Source: Escherichia coli (GTDB lineage Bacteria > Pseudomonadota > Gammaproteobacteria > Enterobacterales > Enterobacteriaceae). Taken from it: DNA of 4,958 nt. Positions 1 through 4,958 of the stretch are shown here, piece by piece. The position numbers and the translations under genes were made by a program. The stretch is taken from the NCBI RefSeq assembly GCF_036507355.1, contig NZ_AP027883.1. The stretch is one strand, 5' to 3'. The notes below the pieces were generated by a model that was not told the DNA's origin, made no database searches, and saw only the letters and a program-made list of their open reading frames with translations. Within the stretch, counting starts at the first letter, position 1. Each line of letters begins with the position of its first letter.

Positions 1-124
1 AACCAGCCTCGACACCATCAAGAGCTGGGAAACCGGACGCCGTAACCCGACCGGACTGGCGGCGAAGGTACTGGCAACCATCCAGGCGAACCCGAAATTC
101 TTCCAGGAACTGGCGGCGCACTAA
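1..124 (+). CDS. higA: 3' part of a HigA2-like XRE-family helix-turn-helix antitoxin gene (5' part is at the window end; nt 1 is the third base of a codon split across the window boundary)
   Basis: Reading from nt 2 gives TSLDTIKSWETGRRNPTGLAAKVLATIQANPKFFQELAAH followed by TAA at 122-124. The SLDTIKSWETGRRNP stretch is the second helix and turn of a classic XRE-type HTH. It continues in frame from the partial ORF at 4798-4958. Confidence 0.75.
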   Translation, partial: TSLDTIKSWETGRRNPTGLAAKVLATIQANPKFFQELAAH

Positions 125-272: not shown

Positions 273-323
273 ATGAAACGTGCCAGACAACAGCCCGCCA
301 TAAGCGCAGGGCGAATTGAATAA
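273..323 (+). promoter_or_regulatory. Candidate 16-codon leader mini-ORF (MKRARQQPAISAGRIE) whose stop overlaps the rep start; possible translational-coupling element
   Basis: ATG at 273-275 preceded by AAGGA (259-263) at 9 nt spacing; in-frame TAA at 321-323 lies 3 nt after the TTG at 316 that opens the rep frame (aTTGAATAA). Purely sequence-based, no homology support. Confidence 0.25.
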
Positions 324-1284
324 CGCAGTACTCGAACTTTTCAACGACCGCTTACCGCACAAGCCGTACTTTTCGGACGATCTGCACTTTGGTGTACGCA
401 TTGCCGGTAAGGAACGCGCCATTCTGGCGAAATACATCCAGTTCAATCAGCCTCACGCCATGTTCTGGCTGGGATTCGACGTCGATCGCGCCGGTGCCGC
501 TATTGACTGGAGCGACCGCAATGCCCCCGCGCCGACACTGACGATCACCAACCCCGAAAACGGGCACGCGCACCTGCTTTACGCGCTGAAAACCCCGATA
601 CGTACCGCGCCAGACGGAAAAATGAAGCCATTACGCTACGCAGCTGCCGTAGAGAACGCGCTACGTAAAAAATTAGAGGCTGATGCGGGGTATTCGGGAC
701 TAATCTGCAAAAATCCGAACCACGGACACTGGAAAATTGCCGTATGGCAGCCGGAACTCTACACGCTGGACTGGTTGGCTGACTTTCTTGACCTGAACGC
801 AGCGAACGAAAAAGACATCGTTGATGACTACGGCTTAGGCCGTAACTGCACCTTGTTCGACAAGACCCGTAAGTGGGCATACCGCGCTATCCGTCAGGGC
901 TGGCCGGAGTATGAGCAGTGGCTGCAAGCCTGCTATGAGCGGGCTAGTGCTTACAACCTGCAATTTGCTGTGCCTCTGGATGAAAATGAGGTGAACGGGA
1001 TTGCTAAAAGCATTGCTAATTGGACAATATGCAATATGTCAGAATTCGAATTTAGAGAATACGTAAAGAAAACTCACACTTCAAAAATACAAGCTTTGAG
1101 AGGTAAGATTGGAGGTCGCAAAAGCAAAGGTGGAGGGCGTAGGAAAAATTCTAGTTGCCCCACATCAGAACGAACTACAAAGCCATGGGTTTTACTTGGT
1201 ATTAGTCGTTCGACTTATTACAGGAAAAAATCAAATAAATTTAAGGCTGATTTAAATGTCCAACCAGAAGAGTTTGAATATTGA
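316..1284 (+). CDS. rep: ColE2-type plasmid replication initiator Rep (plasmid-specific primase), probable TTG start
   Basis: 322-aa ORF. The N-terminal two thirds (LPHKPY, QPHAMFWLGFDVDR, NPENGHAHLLYAL, YSGLICKNPNHGHW, GLGRNCTLFDKTRKWAYR) and the C-terminal KPWVLLGISRSTYYRK match my recollection of the ColE2 Rep family. There is no in-frame ATG between the upstream stop (301-303) and residue 48, so TTG 316 is the only plausible start; the Shine-Dalgarno is weak (AGGG at 308-311). Confidence 0.85.
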   Translation: MNNAVLELFNDRLPHKPYFSDDLHFGVRIAGKERAILAKYIQFNQPHAMFWLGFDVDRAGAAIDWSDRNAPAPTLTITNPENGHAHLLYALKTPIRTAPDGKMKPLRYAAAVENALRKKLEADAGYSGLICKNPNHGHWKIAVWQPELYTLDWLADFLDLNAANEKDIVDDYGLGRNCTLFDKTRKWAYRAIRQGWPEYEQWLQACYERASAYNLQFAVPLDENEVNGIAKSIANWTICNMSEFEFREYVKKTHTSKIQALRGKIGGRKSKGGGRRKNSSCPTSERTTKPWVLLGISRSTYYRKKSNKFKADLNVQPEEFEY

Positions 1285-2275
1285 GTTGCTTAGGTGTCTC
1301 GCAGTAATTTCAGTGATTTTGATACATATGACCATGGGGCATTTTTACGATGCCTTGCTCATGCATGAAAATAAATTGTCATGGATTGTTAGTAATCTTT
1401 ACTACTCGTTAACTAGGTTTTGCGTCCCTATTTTTTTTATTATATCAGCTTATTTGGTTTTTAATAATAAATCCAATAAGAAATGGCATGAAAGATTAGT
1501 AAGACTTGGCTTGCCATTCGTCGCATGGTCGGCTATTTATTATGTGTACGGAGGAGGGCGCGATGCCTCGGAATTCCTAAAAAAAATACTAACAGAAAAC
1601 ACATCATTTCATCTTTGGTTTTTTCCTCCTTTTATAGGTTACACTCTTCTTCTTCCTGCGATCAAAAGTTTATTCATCAGTGAGAATAAAGATAAATTCA
1701 AATATATTTTCGTTATCATTTTTTTATCGTCCATCTTCACCCCTTCATTAATAATGCTGCTAAATTATTTTATTGGTGGCTATTCGTTTATCTATGGGAT
1801 AAGTAATTTTTGTTTAACGCTACCACCTTTGTTAGTATATGGTTTCGCATTTTCTTATTTTTACAAAAAAGTTAACGTGGTGAGTTGGTTTGTGGGGTAC
1901 TTAGTTATAATAATACTCAATATGATGATTAATATCATTATATCTAATAAGCTTGGCACACCTAATGAATGGTTTTATGGCTATACATCAGTTCTGGTTT
2001 TTATTTCTTCTTTTGTTTTATTCAACGTAGTCATGTCAATGAATCTTTCATTTCTTCCAGAAATGGCTGGTAAGGTTGTTTTGATTGTAGGACAGTGCTC
2101 ACTTGGAATATATTTATCTCATTGGTTGGTGTTTTTAATTTTGAGTAAGCATGGTTTATTGTTTTCTGGTAGAGCCATTGTTGATCCAATACTAAATACA
2201 GTAATAGTCTTTTGTGCTTCTATCGCTTTTACATTAGTAGTTCGAATTATTAAACCATTGCGCTATATCTTGTAG
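1256..2275 (+). CDS. Integral-membrane acyltransferase family 3 protein (AT3 / OafA-Oac-like O-acetyltransferase), substrate unknown
   Basis: 339-aa ORF, very AT-rich, hydrophobic throughout (multiple predicted transmembrane segments). N-terminal LLRCLAVISVILIH fits the AT3 first-helix signature R-x2-A-x3-V-x3-H, and FFIISAYLVF resembles the second conserved AT3 motif. ATG at 1256 is preceded by AAGG (1243-1246). The start overlaps the last 29 nt of rep. Stop TAG at 2273-2275. Confidence 0.8.
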   Translation: MSNQKSLNIELLRCLAVISVILIHMTMGHFYDALLMHENKLSWIVSNLYYSLTRFCVPIFFIISAYLVFNNKSNKKWHERLVRLGLPFVAWSAIYYVYGGGRDASEFLKKILTENTSFHLWFFPPFIGYTLLLPAIKSLFISENKDKFKYIFVIIFLSSIFTPSLIMLLNYFIGGYSFIYGISNFCLTLPPLLVYGFAFSYFYKKVNVVSWFVGYLVIIILNMMINIIISNKLGTPNEWFYGYTSVLVFISSFVLFNVVMSMNLSFLPEMAGKVVLIVGQCSLGIYLSHWLVFLILSKHGLLFSGRAIVDPILNTVIVFCASIAFTLVVRIIKPLRYIL

Positions 2276-2284
2276 CTCAATGGT

Positions 2285-2323
2285 TGTGAGACCAAAAACA
2301 AGCCTATATCAGATAACAGCCCT
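2285..2323. other. Probable ColE2-type replication origin (Rep binding and primer synthesis site)
   Basis: tgaGACCAaaaacAAGCCTaTATCAGATAACAGCcc closely resembles the ColE2-P9 minimal origin as I recall it (TGAGACCAGATAAGCCTTATCAGATAACAGCGCCC). In ColE2 plasmids the origin lies just downstream of rep; here it follows the cargo gene instead. Confidence 0.5.
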
Positions 2324-2346
2324 CTTTAGCAGAGGGCTGTTTTTTT
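2317..2346 (+). terminator. Rho-independent terminator closing the rep-acyltransferase transcription unit
   Basis: Perfect 9-bp stem CAGCCCTCT (2317-2325) / AGAGGGCTG (2331-2339) with 5-nt loop TTAGC, followed by a T7 run (2340-2346). Overlaps the 3' end of the origin-like sequence. Confidence 0.6.
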
Positions 2347-2379
2347 GCAGCCAGCACAGAACCTGACATACTGCACTAC

Positions 2380-2400
2380 TCTTTAAGCCAGTACACACAG
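2380..2400 (-). other. ColE1-like oriT nick-site core (bom-type)
   Basis: The - strand reads ...GTGTGTACTGGCTTAAAGAG..., containing TACTGGCTTAA, which is identical to the nick core of the ColE1/pBR322 bom region (gtaTACTGG/CTTAActatg). It lies about 125 bp upstream of mbeC; a short inverted repeat CGTC...GACG (2401-2414) is adjacent. Confidence 0.5.
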
Positions 2401-2468
2401 CGTCCCCTCTGACGAGGTGCCACCGTGACTGGTTCAGGGGGCTCGCCGCCCCCCGAAACCCCCGGCAT

Positions 2469-2510
2469 CCACTGCGAAAAATTCTCACAGTGGTGCGAAT
2501 TTTTTCTCAG
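2469..2510 (+). promoter_or_regulatory. Putative mob operon promoter/operator with repeated TGCGAA-N3/4-TTCTCA elements
   Basis: Direct repeat TGCGAAaaaTTCTCAcag (2473-2490) and TGCGAAttttTTCTCAg (2494-2510), each containing a GAA-W-TTC near-palindrome, plus inverted repeat CCACTG (2469-2474) / CAGTGG (2488-2493). Sits immediately upstream of mbeC; a ribbon-helix-helix MobC-type protein would be a natural binder. No clear sigma70 hexamers assigned. Confidence 0.3.
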
Positions 2511-2518
2511 CGGAGCCT

Positions 2519-2845
2519 ATGGAAAAGCGAACGAAAGAGATAAAAATCCGGCTTACCGAAACCGAGCATCAGCGACTGCTTGATCGCTGCGACCGGACTC
2601 ACCTTGCGGAGTGGCTTCGTCAGCTCGGTCTGGGTGAACATACCTCCCGCAAGCGCCGTGTGCCTGAGGTGGCGCCCGAACTGCTGCGGCAGGTCAGCGG
2701 TATTGGCAATAACCTGAACCAGATTGCCCGCCGCCTGAACCAGGCTGATTCCCTGACGCCTTCTGAACGTGTCTCGCTGCTCGTCGTACTGACCAGCCTT
2801 GATCGGCAGCTTGGCGACCTGCTGGAGCAGAACCGTGATCGTTAA
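2519..2845 (+). CDS. mbeC: Mobilisation accessory protein MbeC/MobC (relaxosome DNA-binding protein)
   Basis: 108-aa ORF. TETEHQRLLDRCD, the LLRQVSGIGNNLNQIARRLN block and the overall length fit the ColE1 MbeC / MobC family as I recall it. GGAG at 2512-2515. Stop TAA (2843-2845) overlaps the relaxase GTG start. Confidence 0.8.
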   Translation: MEKRTKEIKIRLTETEHQRLLDRCDRTHLAEWLRQLGLGEHTSRKRRVPEVAPELLRQVSGIGNNLNQIARRLNQADSLTPSERVSLLVVLTSLDRQLGDLLEQNRDR

Positions 2846-4403
2846 AATTCACTCACGAGGTGCGGGTTCCGGCAGCGGGCCGGTAGATTACCTGTTGGGT
2901 AAAGACCGGCAGCGTGAACAGGCCTGCGTACTGCGTGGCAATCCTGAACATGTGCGTGAGCTGATCGACGGCTGCAACTTTGCCCGCGCCTACACTTCCG
3001 GCGTGCTTTCATTCCAGGAACCTGACATTGCAGACGCCGAGAAATCGCGCCTGATGGACGAATGGGAGCACACGCTGCTGACCGGACTCGACCGCGACCA
3101 GTACGCCTGCCTGTGGGTAGAGCATCGCGACAAGGGACGGCTTGAGCTGAATTTTGTCATCCCGAACATCGAATTGCAGAGTGGAAAACGCCTGCAACCC
3201 TACTTTGACCGCGCCGACCGTCCCCGCGTCAACGCCTGGCAGACCCTGACCAACGACCGGCTGGGGCTGCGCGACCCGAATGACCCGACCTACCGCCGTC
3301 CGCTGACGCAGGCCAGCGATCTGCCCCGCGACAAACAGCAGGCGGCAGAGAAAATCACCGCCGGCCTGATGAACCTGATGCAGCAGGGCGTGATCCGCAG
3401 CCGGCAGGACGTGGTGACGCAGCTGGAAAGCTACGGCCTGACCGTAGCGCGGGAAACGAAAAGCAGCATCAGCATTGCCGATCCGGACGGCGGCCGAAAT
3501 ATCCGGCTGAAAGGAATGATTTATGAGCGAGATTTTAAATTTGGCGAAGGGCTTCGAGGAGAAATCGAAGCAGCAGGCGCAGGATACCGAGCAGAGCGTG
3601 AAGCGCGAGTTCGCGAGGCTGGAGACGTCTATCAGCGCGGAACTGCAATCAAGCTCGCAGAGCATCAGCAACGCTATCCGCGAGCAGAACGGCAGGCTGA
3701 CGGGCATGATCAGAACCTCCGTTTCAGCGGCGATGGCGTGGGTATTCCTCTGCTTCGCCCTGCTGATCGGCATCATGGGGGGGATAATCTGGTTTCAGGG
3801 CACGATCATCACCTCGCGCCTGAGCGAAATGGACAGCTACAGCCAGCAGCTGGCGAACCTGAAAGCGAAAAGCGGCGCGGGCGTGGCGATCTACAGCGAC
3901 GACAAGCACCGGAACACCTACATGGTGGTGCTGCCGAAGCAGGCGCACGGCGTGGAAACCTATACATCGACGACCGACAACACCGTAGTGAAATACACGG
4001 CGAAATAACCCCGTCAGAGCGCCCTGAAACGACACAGCGCGTTTTTAACACCGAGGATGACCAAAACCATGACCGAGATGGAAAAACAGCTTCTGAGCGC
4101 CTTAGAGAGCTTACAGACAAGCTACGAGCAACAGCAGCAGGCGTGGCAGGACAGCTACAGCAGCTTGCAGCACATGTTCGAGGCTACCTCACAGGCGCTG
4201 ACGCACAGCGACCGGGTGTGTCAGCACTTGAGCAGTCAGGTAGAGAGCTTGCGCGCGCAGGTCGAGAGCTTGAGCAGGAACGTCAGCCGCTTGATGCGTT
4301 GATCAGGCAGCACGACCGCGCCTACGCCGAGAAGCTGCGTGAGCAGCAGCCAGAGCCGGAGCCGCAGAAAAAAACGACCCGCTACTATGGCCCCTCGATG
4401 TGA
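2835..4403 (+). CDS. mbeA: MOB-HEN (ColE1 MbeA-type) conjugative relaxase; start placed at GTG 2835 rather than the ATG at 2799 in the ORF track
   Basis: From GTG 2835 the protein starts MIVKIHSRGAGSGSGPVDYLL, putting the catalytic Tyr at residue 19 and the HEN motif at H97/E104/N106 (LWVEHRDKGRLELNFVIPN), the same numbering as ColE1 MbeA. GTG 2835 is in frame with ATG 2799 and overlaps the mbeC stop (GTGATCGTTAA). 522 aa; the C-terminal half is low-complexity and charged. Confidence 0.85.
   Translation: MIVKIHSRGAGSGSGPVDYLLGKDRQREQACVLRGNPEHVRELIDGCNFARAYTSGVLSFQEPDIADAEKSRLMDEWEHTLLTGLDRDQYACLWVEHRDKGRLELNFVIPNIELQSGKRLQPYFDRADRPRVNAWQTLTNDRLGLRDPNDPTYRRPLTQASDLPRDKQQAAEKITAGLMNLMQQGVIRSRQDVVTQLESYGLTVARETKSSISIADPDGGRNIRLKGMIYERDFKFGEGLRGEIEAAGAGYRAEREARVREAGDVYQRGTAIKLAEHQQRYPRAERQADGHDQNLRFSGDGVGIPLLRPADRHHGGDNLVSGHDHHLAPERNGQLQPAAGEPESEKRRGRGDLQRRQAPEHLHGGAAEAGARRGNLYIDDRQHRSEIHGEITPSERPETTQRVFNTEDDQNHDRDGKTASERLRELTDKLRATAAGVAGQLQQLAAHVRGYLTGADAQRPGVSALEQSGRELARAGRELEQERQPLDALIRQHDRAYAEKLREQQPEPEPQKKTTRYYGPSM
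3523..4008 (+). CDS. mbeB: MbeB-like mobilisation protein, nested in the +1 frame inside mbeA
   Basis: 161-aa ORF with AAGGA (3511-3515) 7 nt before the ATG; a charged N-terminal region followed by one hydrophobic segment (AAMAWVFLCFALLIGIMGGIIWF). Position and architecture match ColE1 mbeB; call is positional/architectural rather than from verified sequence identity. Confidence 0.6.
   Translation: MSEILNLAKGFEEKSKQQAQDTEQSVKREFARLETSISAELQSSSQSISNAIREQNGRLTGMIRTSVSAAMAWVFLCFALLIGIMGGIIWFQGTIITSRLSEMDSYSQQLANLKAKSGAGVAIYSDDKHRNTYMVVLPKQAHGVETYTSTTDNTVVKYTAK
4069..4302 (+). CDS. mbeD: MbeD-like mobilisation protein, nested in the +1 frame inside the 3' part of mbeA
   Basis: ORF track starts at ATG 4057 (no spacing after GAGG). 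The in-frame ATG 4069 (MTEMEKQLLSALESLQ...) has GAGGA 11 nt upstream and better fits the ColE1 MbeD start as I recall it. Coiled-coil-like repeats (QVESLRAQVESLSRNV). Same frame as mbeB. Confidence 0.55.
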   Translation: MTEMEKQLLSALESLQTSYEQQQQAWQDSYSSLQHMFEATSQALTHSDRVCQHLSSQVESLRAQVESLSRNVSRLMR

Positions 4404-4404
4404 C

Positions 4405-4460
4405 CGCTTTTCCGAAATCAGAATTAAGTGTACTATGTACTCCGTTAAAAACAGGAGACA
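4405..4460 (+). promoter_or_regulatory. Putative higBA promoter/operator region
   Basis: 60-bp gap between the mbeA stop and the higB start contains TTAAGTGTACTATGTACTCCGTTAA, with a GTAC-TAT-GTAC dyad (4427-4440) overlapping a possible -10 (TACTAT 4431-4436), then a strong AGGAG (4453-4457) 6 nt before the GTG. Toxin-antitoxin operators are typically palindromes overlapping the promoter. Confidence 0.3.
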
Positions 4461-4463
4461 GCC

Positions 4464-4796
4464 GTGAGTCACGCGATTGAGTTTATCGAGACCCCGATGT
4501 TTACCCGTCAGATAAAACAGATCGCCACGGATGAAGAACTCAGGGAGCTGCAAAAGACGCTGATTGAGTCGCCGGACAAAGGCGATCTCATTCAGAAAAC
4601 CGGCGGGCTGCGCAAAATCAGGATGGCGACGGGCAACCAGGGAAAAAGCGGCAGCGTGAGGGTGATTTACTTTCTGGCCACCGCCGAGGTGATCTATCTG
4701 GTGATGGCCTACCCGAAAAGCACCAAAGACAGCCTGACGGACGCGGAAAAAGCCGCGCTGAAGACGCTGACCCAACAACTGAAAGACGAGGTGTGA
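4464..4796 (+). CDS. higB: HigB2-like (RelE/ParE superfamily) type II toxin, GTG start
   Basis: 110-aa ORF. TGGLRKIRMATGNQGKSGSVRVIYF and the downstream AEVIYLVMAYPKSTKDSLTD match the HigB-2 toxin family (GTGGLRKIR...GKRGGSRIIYYF...YLL..Y.K pattern) as recalled from Vibrio HigB-2. Toxin-first gene order is typical of hig modules. Stop TGA 4794-4796, 1 nt before the antitoxin ATG. Confidence 0.8.
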   Translation: MSHAIEFIETPMFTRQIKQIATDEELRELQKTLIESPDKGDLIQKTGGLRKIRMATGNQGKSGSVRVIYFLATAEVIYLVMAYPKSTKDSLTDAEKAALKTLTQQLKDEV

Positions 4797-4797
4797 C

Positions 4798-4958
4798 ATG
4801 AGTTTTTTTGACGAGCTGAAAGCATCGCTGGAAGAAGCCGTTGAAATCAAAAACGGCGTCAGAGAGCCTGCCCGCGTCACCCGTTACGAGCTGGCAGACG
4901 TGAAAGCCATCAGGGCACAGCTGAACGTATCTCAGAGCGAGATGGCGAAAGTGCTGGG
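4798..4958 (+). CDS. higA: 5' part of the HigA2-like XRE-family HTH antitoxin gene (runs off the window end and continues at nt 1)
   Basis: MSFFDELKASLEEAVEIKNGVREPARVTRYELADVKAIRAQLNVSQSEMAKVLG...; LNVSQSEMAKVLG is the first helix of an XRE HTH. 53 complete codons plus GG; with nt 1 (A) this makes GGA (Gly) and continues in frame into the 1-124 fragment. Confidence 0.8.
   Translation, partial: MSFFDELKASLEEAVEIKNGVREPARVTRYELADVKAIRAQLNVSQSEMAKVL

Follow-up and report, generated by a model that had tools for sequence, protein, structure and literature searches.

The DNA analysed here, a stretch of 4,958 nucleotides (nt) from Escherichia coli (contig NZ_AP027883.1) that we refer to as the window, is a complete circular mobilizable plasmid in linearised form, and its only cargo is a gene for an AT3 acyltransferase (Pfam PF01757, Acyl_transf_3) that is probably an O-antigen O-acetylase. 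By analogy with characterised enzymes, the plasmid would act as a mobilizable means of serotype conversion and as a barrier to phage adsorption, a reading to which we assign a probability of roughly 0.6. Its parts differ in strength. The protein is almost certainly an active AT3 acyltransferase, and its acceptor is very likely a surface glycan; that this glycan is specifically the O-antigen is probable, and that the selective value of the gene lies in protection from phage has about an even chance of being correct.

A stand-alone AT3 acyltransferase and its relatives

The 339 amino acid (aa) protein matched PF01757 with E=7.7e-29, residues 8-329 aligning with model positions 3-324 of 326, in agreement with the initial annotation, which had assigned the gene to the AT3 family; the two motif strings quoted there, LLRCLAVISVILIH and FFIISAYL, are found at residues 11-24 and 60-67, respectively. 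Functional AT3 domains are defined by R-X10-H in the first transmembrane helix (TMH1) and by RXXR at the cytoplasmic face in TMH3, the equivalents in OafB being R14/H25 and R71/R74 (PMC9833829). Both motifs are present in the plasmid protein, with exactly 10 residues between R13 and H24 in TMH1 and with R80-L-V-R83 followed by an invariant P87, some relatives having K at one position of RXXR. Across 20 relatives H24 was invariant and R13 at least 90% conserved, and further invariant blocks were RFCVP (54-58), HLWF (119-122) and the residues S282, G284, Y286, L287, H289 and W290. The prediction of a polytopic membrane protein also held, as hydropathy indicated multiple transmembrane segments and an AlphaFold2 model computed on the family alignment (predicted local distance difference test score, pLDDT, 89.9; predicted template modelling score, pTM, 0.89) was all-helical with about 10 long helices. 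A profile search of the PDB sequences found no AT3 structure, and Foldseek returned no match for the model in BFVD. When the model was compared with the PDB by Foldseek, the sole high-probability structures (0.82-0.97) were those of human HGSNAT, an acetyl-CoA transmembrane acetyltransferase, with a template modelling score relative to the query (TMq) of ~0.44 and a non-significant E=0.17. This likeness agrees with the proposed TmAT superfamily (PMC12423673). The fused AT3-SGNH type represented by OafA, OafB and OatA was ruled out, since the protein ends at residue 339 and has no SGNH match; it is thus an AT3-only enzyme, and by analogy it would carry out acyl-CoA-dependent transfer onto an extracytoplasmic acceptor.

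Within PHROGs, the protein falls into phrog_3333 'O-acetyltransferase' (E=5e-13), and among the characterised enzymes of the phage collection the closest was Oac of the E. coli O157 phage phiV10, whose annotation gives acetylation of the host O-antigen and a function in superinfection immunity. The enzyme has been described as the O157 O-antigen O-acetyltransferase and a superinfection immunity protein (Perry et al. 2009, as cited in PMC9558356). Comparison of phiV10 Oac with the family profile of the plasmid protein by hhalign gave 99.2% (E=8e-20, 317 columns, 28% identity). Both are AT3-only enzymes of almost the same length (338 vs 339 aa) that can be aligned end to end through the family profile, and the R-X10-H motif, an FxxISG/A-type motif in TMH2, HxW and GIYLxH blocks are common to both. 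Oac is borne by a mobile element, and the relatives of the plasmid protein occupy the same kind of place, adjoining tail-fibre genes. However, the two proteins are only 25-29% identical, and the vehicle of Oac is a temperate phage whereas that of the AT3 gene is a 5-kb mobilizable plasmid.

The genomic context of the relatives is more informative about the acceptor than the sequence is. A search of 5.8 billion proteins returned about 30 relatives at 41-56% identity, including proteins from Erwinia, Cronobacter and Pantoea, and nine contexts, all in this range of identity, were examined. In eight of the nine, the AT3 gene occupies a prophage moron position and/or lies with a gtr cluster for O-antigen glucosylation, the query copy itself being plasmid-borne. 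In Erwinia, the AT3 gene completes a gtrA-gtrB-gtrC-AT3 array beside the his operon, and in Cronobacter muytjensii it is divergent from gtrA-gtrB-x-GT_STM0557. Other copies are located at a prophage end beside baseplate and tail genes, in a prophage remnant with an integrase, Dam and a GtrII glucosyltransferase, in a phage fragment with ninB, an integrase and DUF551, in a region that combines gtrA-gtrB-GtrII and ninG/ninB with AT3 and an integrase, directly 3' of tail-fibre and tail-fibre-assembly (Caudo_TAP) genes, and, together with a P22-like tailspike and a YfdI-type gene (YfdI_N), in a lambdoid nin region. The gtr system, typically carried by prophages, modifies the O-antigen within the periplasm (PMC7685785), and the contexts of the relatives are the signature of lysogenic-conversion O-antigen modifiers. 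A role as O-acetylase of the O-antigen or of enterobacterial common antigen (ECA), which the initial annotation had put forward, is supported by these contexts, by phiV10 Oac as the closest characterised phage enzyme and by the defence genes that sister plasmids carry in the same slot.

Further observations concern the arrangement of these relatives. In lambdoid prophage remnants, AT3 relatives are located in the nin region by ninB/ninG, upstream of the replication gene and on the opposite strand, often a few kb from gtrA-gtrB-GtrII/YfdI genes. Several AT3-bearing remnants adjoin the flagellar locus fliE-fliF; this may be a hot spot at which integration recurs. On three IMG/VR viral contigs, a 33%-identical AT3 gene lies within ~1 kb of the contig end, a position that would fit a moron at the attachment site.

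The plasmid protein would be a transmembrane O-acyltransferase that consists of AT3 alone and is of the prophage 'lysogenic conversion' type. For its mechanism, we infer the acetyl donor, the O-antigen acceptor and the phage and serotype phenotypes from analogy, with OafB, Oac (PMC9833829) and HGSNAT as models. Cytoplasmic acetyl-coenzyme A (CoA) would enter the pore of the 10-helix bundle, where the CoA 3'-phosphate would be held by R13, R80 and R83, and H24 at the periplasmic face would mediate the transfer of the acetyl group to a sugar hydroxyl of the undecaprenyl-linked O-antigen, before ligation of the O-antigen to lipid A-core. With its O-antigen O-acetylated, the cell would change in serotype and in its recognition by antibodies, and adsorption or cleavage would be blocked for phages with tailspikes that recognise the unmodified form. 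Sf6 and phiV10 provide the precedent, in which acetylated O-antigen hinders phages that use the unmodified polymer (PMC9558356). Helper conjugative plasmids could then mobilise the cassette between Enterobacterales.

Weighing the acceptor

Several observations weigh against an O-antigen acetylase. In an all-against-all BLASTP comparison, the plasmid AT3 family, phiV10 Oac and E. coli WecH were approximately equidistant (24-29% identity); because WecH is as distant as phiV10 Oac, sequence does not separate O-antigen from ECA as the substrate, in line with the caution of the initial annotation that the substrate cannot be read from sequence. Sf6 Oac and OacB/C/D belong to the same Pfam family and have the same predicted job, AT3-only O-antigen acetylation leading to serotype conversion and superinfection immunity, but Sf6 Oac had no detectable pairwise or profile similarity to the plasmid protein beyond the FFxIS motif and therefore belongs to a different AT3 subgroup. 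One of the nine contexts, a lone chromosomal island in the cmoB-cutC interval, has no phage or gtr neighbour. Only six relatives were found in IMG/VR, all of them distant (at most 33% identity), so that the evidence for a link to phages comes from prophage regions of bacterial contigs and not from curated viral contigs. No NCBIfam model matched the protein, and neither did any PADLOC-DB 2.0 family at E<=0.01. Furthermore, the sister plasmids whose cargo is considered below were chosen from the top 40 matches for annotation diversity and are a non-random sample. Finally, only seven sites vary among the AT3 copies (four synonymous and three non-synonymous), so dN/dS, the ratio of non-synonymous to synonymous substitution rates, is uninformative and purifying selection cannot be demonstrated.

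The equidistance of WecH (YiaH) is what brings ECA into consideration. WecH is likewise AT3-only, of similar size (331 vs 339 aa) and from the same AT3 subgroup; the AT3 protein at the WecH position in Yersinia matched the family profile by hhalign at 98.4% (E=4e-15, 301 columns), and the BLASTP match of E. coli WecH, identified by its xylB neighbour, was as good as that of phiV10 Oac. The plasmid could accordingly supply, in trans, a WecH-like O-acetylase acting on O-6 of the N-acetylglucosamine of ECA. We regard this as unlikely, since WecH is encoded on the chromosome by a conserved housekeeping gene whose locus, beside xylAB, is fixed, whereas the plasmid family is low in GC, mobile and associated with prophages and with gtr operons, which act on the O-antigen (PMC7685785). 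A WecH-like copy on a plasmid would also be redundant because the hosts already carry WecH. An orthologue of WecH was ruled out, as the identity is 24-25% over ~330 aa, the gene is plasmid-borne and its relatives lie away from the xylAB/yiaAB locus; E. coli and Yersinia WecH share 58% identity.

AT3-only enzymes as a group modify many acceptors, including capsules, poly-N-acetylglucosamine, Nod factors and osmoregulated periplasmic glucans (PMC9558356), and since the substrate is not legible in the sequence, the acylated glycan might also be a K-antigen capsule, colanic acid, osmoregulated periplasmic glucans or the lipopolysaccharide core. This is about as improbable as an ECA acetylase, given that no relative was found in a capsule, colanic acid or opg locus and that prophages or gtr clusters account for eight of the nine contexts.

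Low prevalence and recent spread could instead point to a neutral or decaying hitch-hiker without current function, for instance if its hosts lack a compatible acceptor sugar. Searches for near and distant DNA matches detected no copy of the cargo in 72,556 PLSDB plasmids, where the best protein match was 28.7% identical, or in 5,426 complete E. coli genomes. In the cluster of AT3 proteins at 90% identity, E. coli (e.g. WP_174562374.1) and Citrobacter farmeri are represented by entries named only 'acyltransferase family protein', and many ~5-kb Logan/ENA/JGI contigs belong to the cluster as well; the AT3 plasmids came from E. coli, C. farmeri and gut metagenomes. The arrangement rep-AT3-mobC was the same in the 15 recovered loci, with 0-5 differences per 1,020 nt in the AT3 gene. 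Among nine full-length copies, divergence was at most 1% at ~800-2800, which includes the cargo and its flanks, and 2-7% at 200-800, 2800-3200 and 3600-4958. This is one young cargo haplotype on mosaic, recombinant backbones, and it follows that the gene spread recently, with recombination among sister plasmids. Because the cargo block is very young (at most 0.5% divergence), there has been little time for selection. We nevertheless hold a functionless passenger to be rather improbable: the gene was intact with its catalytic residues in 15/15 copies from two genera and several metagenomes, it makes up 20% of a 5-kb plasmid on which all other functions are essential ones, and membrane-protein cargo is costly, so that quick loss would be expected if it were useless.

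E. coli and Citrobacter are not known to have PatB, and no PatB-like partner is among the open reading frames (ORFs) of the plasmid. Peptidoglycan O-acetylation for lysozyme resistance, which the initial annotation had too generously called equally possible, is therefore very improbable, the protein having no SGNH domain (Pfam: AT3 only) and the contexts of its relatives pointing to the O-antigen, although OatA-type AT3 proteins acetylate N-acetylmuramic acid and WecH can replace PatA if PatB is supplied (PMC9558356). An antibiotic or macrolide acyltransferase was rejected, as the contexts of the relatives argue otherwise.

Plasmid backbone and cargo slot

The coordinates of the plasmid features are compiled in Table 1. 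The window represents the whole circle, because both the 94-aa antitoxin ORF and the alignment with a sister plasmid continue unbroken across the 4958->1 junction. As the initial annotation had stated, the AT3 gene is the sole cargo and every other gene serves maintenance or transfer. Its label 'ColE-type' needs qualifying: mobilisation alone is ColE1-like, and replication is Rep-dependent and ColE2-like. MbeA matched NCBIfam NF047848 with E=7.5e-142 and 473.9 bits, slightly below the curated cut-off of 500. The nick sequence, which contains CTGGCTTA as in ColE1-type origins of transfer (oriT; PMC5703827), had one match to its pattern in the window and none in 200 shuffles. The nesting of mbeB and mbeD in alternative frames of mbeA resembles ColE1. 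Two long antisense ORFs in the GC-rich mbeA region (3009-3776 and 4236-4880) are probably not genes, and Rfam detected no RNA family on the plasmid, copy-control RNA models included. Close relatives were typed as Col(Ye4449)/MOBP by MOB-suite; the plasmid has the features of this type, namely a Rep with Replicase and PriCT_1 domains, MbeA/B/C/D, a ColE1-type nic and a closed circle, and its backbone is 94-97% identical to typed Col(Ye4449) plasmids.

Table 1 Features of the 4,958-bp plasmid (positions in the window)
Feature	Position	Strand	Remarks
rep	316..1284	+	322 aa; Replicase PF03090 and PriCT_1
Variable low-GC module	1026..2285	+	GC 0.33; Rep C-terminal tail and AT3 gene
AT3-only acyltransferase gene	1256..2275	+	339 aa; PF01757; ATG at 1256, stop ending at 2275
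Putative terminator of rep-cargo transcript	2315..2341	+	perfect 11-bp hairpin, then T-run
ColE1-type oriT nick sequence TACTGGCTTAA	2383..2393	-	contains CTGGCTTA; right-hand border of the cargo slot
mobC/mbeC, relaxosome accessory gene	2519..2845	+	
mbeA, relaxase	2835..4403	+	start deduced from the gene calls of identical copies
mbeB	3523-4008		nested inside mbeA, other frame
mbeD	4057-4302		nested inside mbeA, other frame; E=1.6e-30
RelE/ParE-family toxin	4464..4796	+	
NadS/HigA-type antitoxin of RelE/ParE addiction pair	4798-4958 + 1-124		94 aa; after the toxin gene; crosses 4958->1

The AT3 frame cannot be extended upstream of its ATG, and its homologues begin at the same residue. The 3' end of rep overlaps its start by 29 nt, an AAGG Shine-Dalgarno-like motif is located ~10 nt 5' of the ATG, and a search for a promoter-like site between rep and the AT3 gene found none, suggesting that the two genes are co-transcribed; the hairpin that may terminate this transcript begins 40 nt past the AT3 stop, within the conserved backbone. 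The AT-richness pointed out in the initial annotation is real, the gene having a GC content of 0.325 vs 0.567 for the backbone (0.28-0.35 over positions 1200-2250 and 0.50-0.64 elsewhere in the window). Most AT3 relatives are low in GC as well (0.32-0.35, two at 0.41-0.44) in genomes of 0.48-0.55. AT-richness is thus a trait of this AT3 family and not a mark of very recent import, and since the family is low in GC in every genomic context, low GC alone cannot date the acquisition.

More than 1,200 PLSDB plasmids share the backbone, yet they cover at most 76% of the window and lack the cargo. Sister-plasmid DNA homology covers 2286-4958 and 1-1025, which delimits the variable module between them; it consists of the last ~85 rep codons and the AT3 gene and nothing else. 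The sister plasmids, from Salmonella, Klebsiella and E. coli, have the same cargo slot between rep and oriT, and the cargo there is usually on the same strand and starts in overlap with the rep stop codon, as the AT3 gene does. PADLOC defence models matched 8/10 tested sister cargo proteins, and among the PLSDB matches listed with visible cargo names almost all are of defence type. The matched proteins are an AbiU-like AIPR protein, a dCTP deaminase on p58 of the enterotoxigenic E. coli strain H10407 (E=1e-158), AriA and AriB of PARIS, a ThsB-like TIR protein (matched by ThsB) that occurs with DUF4231, an HEC-06/GmrSD-like DUF262 protein, a PbeA/type IV-like DEAD helicase and an orphan-looking type II methyltransferase; a J-domain protein was also among the sister cargo. 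In contrast to these proteins, which act inside the cell on phage DNA, on nucleotides or via abortive infection, the AT3 protein is a membrane enzyme with predicted action at the cell surface and without a match to a defence model. Because the sister slot holds intracellular anti-phage systems, the AT3 gene would best be interpreted as a defence cassette that masks the receptor. Changes to receptors are an accepted, though usually uncatalogued, route to phage resistance; in one phage-resistance screen, for example, 117/257 resistant clones were discarded as surface or adsorption effects (bioRxiv 10.1101/2022.05.12.491691). We tentatively propose that Col(Ye4449)-type plasmids are one-slot carriers of swappable 'defence cassettes', here loaded with a prophage-derived O-antigen acetylase. 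Serotype conversion and masking of the phage receptor, traits classically borne by phages, would then have passed to a 5-kb plasmid that can be mobilised between E. coli and Citrobacter with no phage involved; this generalisation is somewhat less likely to be right than wrong. An account of a defence slot on Col(Ye4449) plasmids was not found in the literature library searched, an absence that is no proof.

Both borders of the slot have features of their own. In eight sister plasmids, Rep is almost invariant over its first 237 aa and hypervariable, in length as well as in sequence, over its last ~85 aa, the tails retaining a helix-turn-helix-like motif, PW..GIS(R/K)..Y(Y/F). A search of PLSDB with the Rep-tail region (1000-1300) gave best matches of only 66-74%. 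As sister DNA homology stops at 1025, every cargo is accompanied by a Rep tail of its own, a hint at a link between the swapping of cargo and the specificity of the replicon. On the other side, the ~140 nt at 2277-2420, with the hairpin and the nick sequence, are 93% identical to a segment of NZ_CP104531.1, a ColE1/Rop-type 4.5-kb E. coli plasmid, where the segment abuts a ScaI-type restriction-modification cargo. The oriT-side cargo junction is thus common to different replicon types, and relaxase- or oriT-mediated recombination might move the cargo.

Precedents and implications

The enzyme adds an uncharacterised member to the AT3-only group of phiV10 Oac and WecH and represents no new kind of enzyme; the unusual part is its vehicle, a 5-kb mobilizable plasmid. 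In the library searched, we found no description of the AT3 plasmid or of a plasmid-borne Oac-type acetylase, which does not prove that none exists. A precedent named in the initial annotation, pWQ799 of Salmonella Borreze, was confirmed: this plasmid encodes the O:54 antigen (Keenleyside et al. 1994, as cited in PMC7685785). It is likewise small and mobilizable and governs a property of the O-antigen, as the AT3 plasmid is predicted to, but it has a complete gene cluster for the biosynthesis of a new polymer, whereas the AT3 plasmid carries a single decorating enzyme. A closer precedent is pSFxv_2 of Shigella flexneri Xv, a 6.85-kb plasmid with lpt-O/opt, the gene for an O-antigen phosphoethanolamine transferase (PMC3458804). 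This arrangement resembles that of the AT3 plasmid in that a small plasmid with Rep and Mob functions bears, as cargo, a single enzyme that decorates the O-antigen at the periplasmic face. The two differ in chemistry (phosphoethanolamine vs acyl transfer), enzyme family and backbone, and the serotype-converting function is proven for pSFxv_2 and inferred for the AT3 plasmid.

If our interpretation as an O-antigen acetylase is correct, receptor modification would join the defence cargo of small plasmids, a function for which current defence-finder catalogues have no score. The plasmid would overturn nothing and would show, in a simple and testable form, the capture of serotype conversion of the phage type by a mobilizable plasmid with a defence slot. 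Any co-resident conjugative plasmid could mobilise the change, independently of the usual temperate-phage carriers, and this would bear on O-antigen-based typing and vaccines and on the prediction of host range in phage therapy. If the plasmid enzyme acetylates the O-antigen, serotype, the epitopes that matter for vaccines and antibodies, and phage susceptibility could all shift in a single step, and in more than one genus.

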